Below the pieces are notes generated by a model. The model was given only the letters and a program-made list of their open reading frames with translations, did no database searches and was not told the origin of the DNA. Shown here piece by piece: positions 4,752-35,944 of a stretch of 64,000 nt of DNA (positions within the stretch are counted from its first letter, which is position 1; every line of letters starts with the position of its first letter). Source of the stretch: a phage; sequence record PZ452591.1. The stretch is one strand, 5' to 3'. A program made the translations under genes and the position numbers.

Positions 4752-4752
<1 letters not shown>
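4555..4752 (-). CDS. hypothetical protein, about 65 aa
   Basis: in-frame ATG at 4750-4752 overlapping pseT stop by 1 nt; track ORF extends 31 nt further into pseT. Confidence 0.45.
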
Positions 4753-5657
<905 letters not shown>

Positions 5658-7089: not shown

Positions 7090-8677
<1,588 letters not shown>

Positions 8678-33179: not shown

Positions 33180-33329
33180 TTACTGCATGACTGTGATAAC
33201 TGTCATGATAACACGTTGAATTCCGAACGCAAGAAGACCTCCTGCTACAGCTGGAACAACGCCTAAACCCGCCAGTAAAATGCTACCAGATACTAATGCA
33301 GCGCTTGTAATACCAATGAATGGACTCAT
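33180..33329 (-). CDS. small membrane protein, 49 aa (gene 52.1 position), glycine-zipper-like
   Basis: ATG at 33327-33329 overlapping gene 52 stop as ATGA; GAGGAAA Shine-Dalgarno; not in ORF track (<60 aa). Confidence 0.45.
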   Translation of the reverse strand: MSPFIGITSAALVSGSILLAGLGVVPAVAGGLLAFGIQRVIMTVITVMQ

Positions 33330-34654
33330 TTGATTTCCTCTAAATCTTTGGTGTATTCGGTAACTACATCAGTAGTTTTCCAATATTCGTTTTCTTCTTT
33401 TTTAGCTTTAGCTTCTTCAGCAAGTTTCTTTGCTTCATCGGAAGTCATATGAAAAATATTCATTCCAACTAGTTTATCAACATAAGAAGAATACATATCA
33501 ATTTTAGAAAGTTCTTCGGTCAGTTCTTTACGAGTTTTACCCTGTACAACAATTTCACCCGAAATTACTTTCTTAATGAAATGCGCCTTGGCAAAGGCTA
33601 AACGAAAAGCTGACTCAGTTTCTTTAATTTTGTTATCAATTCGTTTTTGGACATAAGTTTTACGAACTTCAACGAAGTCTTTGATTAAATCAACTACGTT
33701 ATCGTAAACTTGTAGCTTTCCTTTCTCATTAATAACCGTAATATTCTGAGAACGACGCTCAATCAGTCCGAAGTCTTTCATAATTTTTGCATGGCGTTCT
33801 TCTTCGTTATCGCTCAAAGAATATTCTTTACGGAATTTAACTTTGAATCCAAACCCGTGCTCACCGCAAGCATCATCCCATATAATGAAGCCTTTATCTT
33901 CAAGCGGGTCTAAGATTTTACTCACATAAGTTTCACGATCATACTTATACGGAATCTCAGTGATATGCATTTGAGTTCGTGAAGTAAACTTATATTTTCC
34001 ACGAATTTCATATTGCCCATCAATTTCAACGACTTCACCACGAAATTCTGGGAATTCTACCTTCGGTTTAGTTATTTTCTTTCCTTGAAGAGCTTGCAGT
34101 ACAGCTTTCTTGACAGAAGAAACACTATGAGGAAGAATGTAAGTTGCATAACCAGTTGCAATACCGGAAACGCCATTAAGAAGAACAGTAGGAATAATAG
34201 GCAAATAGAAAGCAGGCGGAATGTGTTCTTTATCTTGATGTACCGGAGCATATTCAGTATCTTTATATACGTTATAGAAATTTTTACTTACACGAGCAAA
34301 AATATAACGACTTGCTGCTGCCTTTTGGACAGTACGAGAACCGAAGTTTCCTTGACCATCTAACAGAGGAAAGTTATTATTCCAAGTGTTAGCCATCAAA
34401 GCACCTGCGTCTTGTGCAGAGTTTTCGCCATGGTGATATCCAAGGTCCGCTACACCACCTGCGATAGAAGCGAGTTTGTGAAACTTATCTTTATTTCCTC
34501 GTGCCAAATCAAGAGCTCGAGCAATAACAAATCGTTGAACTGGCTTAAATCCATCAATCATATTTGGAATAGCACGATTTTCAACCGTGTACATAGCATA
34601 AGCCAATGCTTCATTATCAATGATACTTTTTAAATCGCGATTATTCAGTTGCAT
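33326..34654 (-). CDS. 52: topoisomerase II medium subunit gp52, 442 aa
   Basis: ATG at 34652-34654; length and position match T4 gp52. Confidence 0.92.
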   Translation of the reverse strand: MQLNNRDLKSIIDNEALAYAMYTVENRAIPNMIDGFKPVQRFVIARALDLARGNKDKFHKLASIAGGVADLGYHHGENSAQDAGALMANTWNNNFPLLDGQGNFGSRTVQKAAASRYIFARVSKNFYNVYKDTEYAPVHQDKEHIPPAFYLPIIPTVLLNGVSGIATGYATYILPHSVSSVKKAVLQALQGKKITKPKVEFPEFRGEVVEIDGQYEIRGKYKFTSRTQMHITEIPYKYDRETYVSKILDPLEDKGFIIWDDACGEHGFGFKVKFRKEYSLSDNEEERHAKIMKDFGLIERRSQNITVINEKGKLQVYDNVVDLIKDFVEVRKTYVQKRIDNKIKETESAFRLAFAKAHFIKKVISGEIVVQGKTRKELTEELSKIDMYSSYVDKLVGMNIFHMTSDEAKKLAEEAKAKKEENEYWKTTDVVTEYTKDLEEIK

Positions 34655-34957
34655 AAATTTACCATACTAGTGAATGTAGTGCCATAATAACATCAGAAAT
34701 GAAAAGCACGACTTGAATTAATCCGAACATTACTCCGTAATATAGTGCTACCAATAAAGCAGCAAGGGCTAATGAATAGCCCAAGATTTTCTTAATCATT
34801 AGATAACAACACAAATGTTAAATATGCACACATACCCTGGGCTAAAGCCTGTGAAAACACACTACTGACATCGATACAGATAGTTAAAACACATGCTACT
34901 ATCCAACAAATAAATGAAATAATTCCAATAATTTTTGCAGTATTCATAGTATTCTCC

Positions 34958-35044
34958 TCAACTATTTTTAAAACCTAAAATACCGAAGTTTTTAAGATTG
35001 TTACGATAGAACTGCATCACATGTTCGTTATGGAAATTACTCAT
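34958..35044 (-). CDS. stp: Stp peptide (activator of host PrrC anticodon nuclease), 28 aa
   Basis: minus [31 protein letters not shown]; N-terminal 18 residues match my recollection of T4 Stp; ATG at 35042-35044. Confidence 0.6.
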
Positions 35045-35209
35045 ATATACCACACATTTTGCATAAACGTTCAAAACAGATATATCCACCACCAAAACAC
35101 ATCACTATAGCAACTTTATCATTAAATGGAGCACCAAAGGCCATAAAGGCTCCGACCATTGTGAATAAAACTAAAACAAATATATAACCCGTTACGAATA
35201 GACGTTTCA

Positions 35210-35668
35210 TTAGTAAGCCTGCAGGATGAATTTAAAGTTATCAGCCAACATACGGTTCATTTCTTCAAGTGTTTGATACTCAGAATGATGATTACGAGTA
35301 AACGCCAAAGCTAACTGACCTTTTCCAAATCCTGTCGTCAATGGTTTCATCTTAGAAGCAGGCAGATAAAATACTGTGTATGGAACATTGTTATTTGCAA
35401 TAGTACGCGCAAGCTGAGACCGACGCTGACGAATATGACTTAGAACCGCACTGAATCCTTGCTTAGAACGCTGATTACCTACATAAAATCGTGCGGACAC
35501 GCACGGATTACTAAATGGACGACCATCTAATTTACTCACTAAAAAGTAAAATCCAGGTTTAGATAAAATATCTTTATGCGGAGTTCCCAAAAACCACTCA
35601 CCGCCCTTGATTGTACCAATAACAGTAGCGCCTGCATTATTCAGATCAGTAACAGTCATATATTTCAT
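35210..35668 (-). CDS. ndd: nucleoid disruption protein Ndd, 152 aa
   Basis: start set at ATG 35666-35668 ([18 protein letters not shown]...) with GAGGA Shine-Dalgarno; track ORF has a 16-codon upstream extension. Confidence 0.85.
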
Positions 35669-35728
35669 ATTAATTTCCTCTAAATTATTTTCTACTCCAA
35701 GGCCGCATGAATACACACGGCCATTAAA

Positions 35729-35944
35729 TTAATCGTCGCAGTCGACGCTCAATTCCCAGAATTCTTCTACGGTATAAGTTTCAGTATCATTTTCAATACA
35801 GAAACGTTCATTACTGTTATTTGCTAAAGTAGCATTAACTGTCGGTTTCTCGCTAGTGCTCTTAAGAGGTGAAATACGAATTAACTGATCACCGTTATCT
35901 AAACAAAAAATTTCACCAACTTTTACATCTTTAAAAATTTTCAT
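35729..35944 (-). CDS. hypothetical protein, 71 aa
   Basis: ORF track; ATG at 35942-35944. Confidence 0.5.
   Translation of the reverse strand: MKIFKDVKVGEIFCLDNGDQLIRISPLKSTSEKPTVNATLANNSNERFCIENDTETYTVEEFWELSVDCDD

Follow-up and report, generated by a model that had tools for sequence, protein, structure and literature searches.

Between the stop codon of ndd (35210) and the start of gene 52 (34654), the phage DNA of record PZ452591.1 has a 555-bp interval (34655–35209) that is occupied by short open reading frames. We analysed a stretch of 64,000 nucleotides of this DNA, here called the window, and asked whether these frames are genes, which genes they are, and whether the C-terminus of one product, Stp, which departs from that of T4, should change its action in the host. 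The original prediction had described the interval as a run of tiny membrane-peptide frames, none of 60 aa or more. The frame list bears out the size limit: its longest minus-strand entries are 57, 51, 51 and 45 aa, and the longest on the plus strand is 42 aa.

Four small genes between ndd and gene 52

The window derives from a Tequatrovirus, and its closest record is Shigella phage JK23. Approximately 1.1 kb around the cluster is 98.4% identical to JK23, and 590 T4-like phage records match. On one side, the interval is flanked by ndd (35210–35668, minus strand), which encodes the nucleoid disruption protein (152 aa; PHROG 1102, E 4.9e-65), and on the other by gene 52 (33326–34654, minus strand), which encodes the medium subunit of topoisomerase II (442 aa; PHROG 551, E 4.6e-220). 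Both are syntenic with their T4 counterparts. The T4 order at this place is ndd-stp-ac-52.1-52, and the initial assignment of the region as a T4-type ndd-to-52 interval was therefore correct.

Four tightly packed genes on the minus strand fill the interval. Reading from ndd, these are orf57 (35037–35210), for a small hydrophobic protein of 57 aa; stp (34958–35044), for a 28 aa peptide of the T2/T6-type allele; ac (34792–34947), for the hydrophobic acriflavine-sensitivity protein of 51 aa; and 52.1 (34659–34799), for a predicted membrane peptide of 46 aa. The limits first given for stp and for the 57 aa frame were exact. The 46 aa frame had been recognised but ended at 34800 instead of 34799, its ATG occupying 34799–34797. 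A hydrophobic frame of '48 aa' had been placed at 34793–34938; the frame is real, but position 34938 is the start of a GCA codon and not a start codon, and the true frame begins with an ATG at 34947 (MNTAKIIG...). This frame is ac, so that both genes expected here from T4, ac and stp, are present. Neither ac nor 52.1 had been named, and it had been missed that the 57 aa frame is the sole gene of the interval that T4 is without.

The junctions are close throughout. The TAA stop of ndd and the ATG of orf57 overlap by 1 nt (TAATG), the 3′ end of orf57 overlaps the start of stp by 8 nt (ATGAGTAA), and the stop of ac overlaps the ATG of 52.1, again by 8 nt (ATGATTAA). A gap of 10 nt with a strong GAGGAG ribosome-binding site lies between stp and ac, and the ATG of gene 52 follows 4 nt beyond the end of 52.1. 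This junction anatomy suggests that translation of the cluster is largely coupled. The cluster would be transcribed from the minus strand together with ndd and gene 52. An Rfam scan of 34300–35800 (E ≤ 1) detected no RNA family, and generic sigma-70 promoters were not enriched in the region (6 sites versus 7.5 expected). A terminator scan of the region returned three weak terminator-like hairpins, none of them convincingly placed.

Gene identities, synteny, alleles and junctions are direct observations of this analysis, as is the difference in RNA folding described below. We conclude that the interval is very probably the standard T-even host-takeover mini-cluster, with 52.1, ac, an Stp that acts like that of T4, and orf57 as an ancestral member.

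Conservation of the small reading frames

An AT-rich genome contains many spurious frames of 20–60 aa on both strands, and the annotation of JK23 is without stp and 52.1. Both points would fit the view that the small frames arose by chance in an AT-rich non-coding spacer. The conservation data rule this explanation out, and we give it practically no credence. All four frames match PHROG families over their full length, with E-values of 1e-25 (52.1), 8.5e-24 (ac, PHROG 2501), 6.7e-18 (stp, PHROG 6763) and 2.2e-21 (orf57, PHROG 5941). Two of the products are identical to characterised or annotated proteins of T4 and T6, position and length are kept across genera, and stp and ac of T4 are genetically defined genes. 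Pairwise dN/dS values across the small frames were 0.07–0.5 and thus below 1, which also argues against chance.

Further features are those of genes. All four frames are co-directional with both flanking genes, with overlaps or gaps of at most 10 nt. Two of the four products scored above the Pfam gathering cut-offs: Stp on PF08133 (Nuclease_act, anticodon nuclease activator; 53.6 bits, cut-off 25, residues 1–24 matched) and gp52.1 on PF24129 (DUF7396; 81.1 bits, cut-off 27). A Pfam search with Ac and orf57 gave only sub-threshold noise (Flu_M2, E 0.14; DUF808, E 0.28). Of the four products, three have GRAVY values of 1.1–1.7 and are hydrophobic peptides of membrane type, so that the description of the interval as a run of membrane peptides holds for these three.

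gp52.1 and Ac

The 52.1 gene, immediately upstream of gene 52, is 100% identical to that of T4 in both protein and DNA. Its first third (34746–34782, minus strand) can form two adjacent hairpins; a 66-nt segment containing them folded at −19.1 kcal/mol (z = −3.5), and none of 200 shuffles was as stable. The second of them shares bases with a MotA-box-like TGCTTTA, and the DNA of the hairpin region is identical in T4. Also inside 52.1, 30–110 nt before gene 52 begins, are two layouts resembling middle promoters (34684–34708 and 34739–34761, both on the minus strand), each with TGCTT, a spacer of 12–15 nt and then TANNNT. This pattern occurs 36 times across the window, versus 19 expected.

Ac is identical to T4 Ac at 46 of 51 residues and has the same length and the same position between stp and 52.1. 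Its GRAVY is 1.44, and the homologue in JK23 is named 'acridine resistance protein'. Loss of Ac renders T4 resistant to acriflavine, and the peptide has been proposed to insert in the membrane and block AcrAB-TolC efflux (bioRxiv 10.1101/2025.06.30.662393). The latter idea is repeated as an assumption in a 2026 PNAS paper (PMC13250531); it is a proposal from a preprint and not an established mechanism. By analogy, Ac of the window would sensitise infected cells to acriflavine, through blocking of AcrAB-TolC efflux as currently proposed.

The ac gene of T6 (MH550421; locus L003, 882–1031) encodes a product of 49 aa whose C-terminus is frameshifted and unrelated (…AQGMWCIFNICVVI). This points either to an inactive ac in T6 or to a sequence error in the MH550421 record.

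A membrane-type protein encoded next to ndd

The orf57 product matches PHROG 5941 over profile positions 1–57 of 57. It is 98% identical to a 'hypothetical protein' of JK23 and 70–75% identical to all other coliphage copies in the collection searched; the exact protein of the window is not on record. We found homologues in 223 phage records, approximately 40 of them coliphages and Shigella phages and the rest mostly Klebsiella phages. In every genome opened, which together represent about eight genera, the homologue directly follows ndd, with stop and start overlapping or abutting. These genomes were Tequatrovirus JK23, Sf24 and 101117BS1, Dhakavirus JS98, Jiaodavirus KPV15, Marfavirus EK29, Winklervirus CHI14, Kagamiyamavirus EcS1 and Mosugukvirus PM2. 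The homologues are 57–58 aa long (61 aa in Marfavirus), and dN/dS for orf57 was 0.26–0.50. A wider protein search with orf57 gave six clusters only, and a scan of IMG/VR gave five loci, all of which duplicated known genomes or were KP15-like contigs.

The protein begins with a basic N-terminus and a hydrophobic helix some 20 residues long (residues 2–24 as predicted transmembrane helix). A short polar loop leads to another hydrophobic stretch, whose length of about 14 residues is short for a membrane span. The conserved tail reads F-E-R-[LI]-x-x-x-x-G-[VI] (FER-x-C/A-K...). An AF2 model with three helices agrees with the hydropathy, at low confidence (pLDDT 64). From hydropathy and model, orf57 would probably form a two-helix hairpin in the inner membrane with the conserved tail in the cytoplasm. 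The original prediction had called the protein Cys-rich. It does have four cysteines in 57 residues, but these appear incidental, none of the four being conserved across genera and Ac having as many in 51; a metal site formed by the four cysteines was rejected for the same lack of conservation. Since orf57, Ac and gp52.1 are all small and hydrophobic, we considered that orf57 might be a paralogue of the other two; BLASTP gave no alignment to either at E ≤ 100, and we rejected the idea.

Judging by its distribution, orf57 probably goes back to the ancestral ndd-to-52 cluster as a small membrane protein. Our best guess at its role is that of a dispensable inner-membrane modulator of host envelope function. 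No study of the gene is known, since T4, T2 and T6 are without it.

Stp and its C-terminal tail

That stp is recognisable in the window, as first noticed, is confirmed by alignment of its N-terminus with T4 Stp, in which residues 1–18 are identical (18/18). Over all 28 residues, the peptide is 100% identical to the annotated Stp of T6. It also has the size and place of its family, a peptide of approximately 26–30 aa between ndd and ac, with orf57 intervening on the ndd side. The T4 tail had been given correctly as TKGVFGRQ, and the C-terminus of the window does differ from it: six of the last eight aligned positions are changed and two residues are added. This T2/T6-type patch is present in 39 phage records, including T2 and T6.

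The window encodes the two enzymes relevant to Stp action elsewhere on the minus strand. The pseT gene (4752–5657) encodes polynucleotide kinase/phosphatase (Pnk; 301 aa, P-loop GCPGSGKST), and rnlA (7090–8214) encodes RNA ligase 1 (374 aa, ligase motif KEDGSL). The N-termini of the two products presumably agree with those of T4 Pnk and T4 Rnl1, respectively.

In T4, the PrrC tRNA-Lys nuclease becomes active when Stp inhibits the type IC restriction enzymes EcoprrI and EcoR124I, and Pnk and RNA ligase 1 provide the tRNA-repair counter-measure (PMC3014915). The function of Stp maps to its N-proximal 18 residues (PMC3014915, citing Penner et al. 1995). Suppressor mutations all cluster in residues 4–14, and removal of the eight C-terminal codons of T4 Stp lowers both activities only moderately. 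Among T4 relatives, residues 1–18 are near-invariant and the remainder is polymorphic (all PMC3014915).

We would expect Stp of the window to behave like T4 Stp, because none of its functional N-proximal 18 residues is changed. By analogy with T4, it would bind and inhibit EcoprrI and EcoR124I; on prr+ hosts, this action would unmask the PrrC tRNA-Lys anticodon nuclease, and the damage would be repaired by the Pnk and RNA ligase 1 that the phage itself encodes. As for all products of the cluster, the biochemical activities proposed here derive from homology and the literature. The suggestion that the changed tail alters the interaction with restriction and anticodon-nuclease complexes is unsupported, because the tail belongs to the T2/T6 allele found in the 39 records, the functional residues 1–18 are unchanged, and Pnk and RNA ligase 1 are encoded. 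Because removal of the C-terminal codons does lower activity moderately, an allele-specific quantitative effect of the tail is conceivable, but nothing points to one.

Stp-like peptides were also seen in T1-like siphoviruses (Drexlerviridae), in which most records leave the frame unannotated. Examples are Shigella phage Sf12 (locus L008, 1483–1575) and Escherichia phage BEK7 (locus L009, ~1501–1581), with 49.9 and 38.9 bits on PF08133, respectively (cut-off 25). In BEK7, a polynucleotide kinase gene follows approximately 500 bp downstream of the frame. We dropped these peptides as a new finding, since such a link has already been noted for the T1-like phages TLS and Stevie (PMC4319613).

The replaced patch at the RNA level

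In DNA alignments, stp is near-invariant as far as codon 18, beyond which approximately 40 nt (alignment columns 61–100), reaching into the ac ribosome-binding site, are replaced. In the window, this patch (34948–34990, minus strand) takes in Stp codons 19–28 with their stop codon, together with the ac ribosome-binding site. Stp codons 21–26 (GVFGR-) of T4, Sf24 and JS98 read GGCGUC-UUCG-GACGCC at the RNA level and form a hairpin of six pairs and the loop UUCG, which JS98 keeps by means of a G-U pair. The hairpin loci compared with the patch of the window were L004 (2000–2050, minus strand), L006 (1411–1461) and L005 (1411–1461). Predicted folds with the hairpin had −12.3 (T4), −11.8 (Sf24) and −8.9 kcal/mol (JS98). 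With the window and T6, the hairpin was absent and the fold had −5.8 kcal/mol, no better than shuffled (z about 0). Hairpins of the C(UUCG)G type are reportedly of exceptional stability and frequent between the cistrons of T4 (Tuerk et al. 1988), and the SA21RB record labels the stp hairpin 'terminator'.

The patch also affects the ac ribosome-binding site, in which GAGGAA of T4 becomes GAGGAG in the window (GAGGAGAAUA), with gain of a GGAG core. The segment GAGGAGAAUA matches the strong RegB cleavage consensus GGAGRAYARAA at 8 of 11 positions. Any consequences of the patch are more likely for mRNA stability or ac translation than for Stp targeting. Whether an RNA hairpin is there or not coincides with the variable tail of Stp, and this may explain the tail's freedom to vary: the stretch may serve mainly at the RNA level.

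Other functions considered for Stp and orf57

The same patch bears on the possibility that the T6-type tail retargets Stp, either to other type I restriction enzymes or to inhibition of restriction without activation of PrrC. The size of the change (6/8 positions and two extra residues) and the persistence of the allele in 39 records would be in line with such a shift, as would the moderate loss of both activities in the eight-codon deletion of T4 Stp, by which the tail is not entirely neutral. We nevertheless regard retargeting as improbable. The suppressors fall within residues 4–14, in a segment identical here, and C-terminal polymorphism has already been described among T4 relatives. Retention of Pnk and Rnl1 is what would be expected if PrrC activation were ongoing, and the changes in RNA structure and in the ac ribosome-binding site offer a reason for divergence outside the protein.

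For orf57, a more specific role can be envisaged, in which it is a partner of Ndd that serves as membrane anchor or modulator in moving the host nucleoid to the cell periphery, T4 having lost it once Ndd was self-sufficient. The peptide is of membrane type, the annotation of Ndd describes binding of host DNA to the membrane, and orf57 adjoins ndd in about eight genera, including Klebsiella phages without stp and ac. Adjacency inside a dense early cluster is, however, a weak sign of shared function. Ndd of T4, T2 and T6 works without orf57, and the dN/dS of 0.4–0.5 indicates only moderate constraint; we therefore hold this role to be doubtful. In an equally unlikely reading, orf57 would either join Ndd as its membrane partner or inhibit a host envelope function, and, separately, the T2/T6 patch would move ac from hairpin-dependent control to control by RegB. 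We prefer the reading of the interval as the standard mini-cluster, with an Stp that acts like that of T4 and a dispensable orf57.

Gene gain and loss in the interval

Absence of orf57 from T4, T2 and T6 corresponds to a missing stretch of 166 bp with ATGA at both ends. The gene was probably lost from these phages and from most Tequatroviruses by a 166-bp deletion between the two ATGA start contexts. KPV15 is without stp and ac, and its orf57 directly overlaps 52.1. Most simply, an ancestral core of ndd-orf57-52.1 would have gained stp and ac in coliphage lineages and lost orf57 later in T4, T2, T6 and most Tequatroviruses. The T2/T6-type stp patch occurs together with orf57 in the window and JK23 only, among the genomes seen. 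The orf57 of the window is nearer to the Dhakavirus copies (74–75% identity) than to the Tequatrovirus copies other than that of JK23 (70%).

Some relatives carry tandem Ac-family genes (T4-type and JS98-type) or an extra hydrophobic frame of 53 aa between ac and 52.1. Loci with such added genes are those of 101117BS1 (locus L002, 1045–1369) and JS98 (locus L005, 1455–1911). The interval is therefore a small gain/loss hotspot for membrane-peptide genes.

Annotation of public records

The four genes are already known: each falls in a described family, and near-identical public copies exist in JK23, T6 and T4. The interval has little discovery value, and its practical use lies in annotation. Both stp and 52.1 are frequently left out, as in JK23, and ac is easily mis-delimited. 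Two modest leads are the membrane peptide that stays attached to ndd across genera and the coincidence of Stp tail and hairpin.

Several related records carry questionable entries. The orf57 homologue of Escherichia phage vB_EcoM_ESCO10 (ESCO10) is misnamed 'sliding clamp', an ndd.4-like peptide of 37 aa in Sf24 is misnamed 'naphthalene 1,2-dioxygenase', and ndd of KPV15 (locus L007, 747–1201) is split into two frames.

Comparison with T4, T6 and other relatives

Compared with T4, the cluster of the window differs mainly around the stp-ac junction. T4 Stp (26 aa) has the same residues 1–18 and lies at the same spot just upstream of ac, but the 3′ end of its gene carries the C(UUCG)G hairpin that stp of the window is without. 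The ac ribosome-binding site is GAGGAA in T4 and GAGGAG in the window. Of the five substitutions between the two Ac peptides, all of them conservative, four are within the first 9 residues, beside the replaced patch. T4 gp52.1, by contrast, shows no difference. T6 shares the Stp allele, but its stp directly follows ndd, whereas orf57 precedes stp in the window. Members of PHROG 5941 in JK23, Sf24, Shfl2, ime09, JS98 and Klebsiella KP15-like phages are each a 'hypothetical protein' downstream of ndd, and they share with orf57 the length of 57 aa, the start on the ndd stop and the G-Y...F-E-R...G-[VI] framework.
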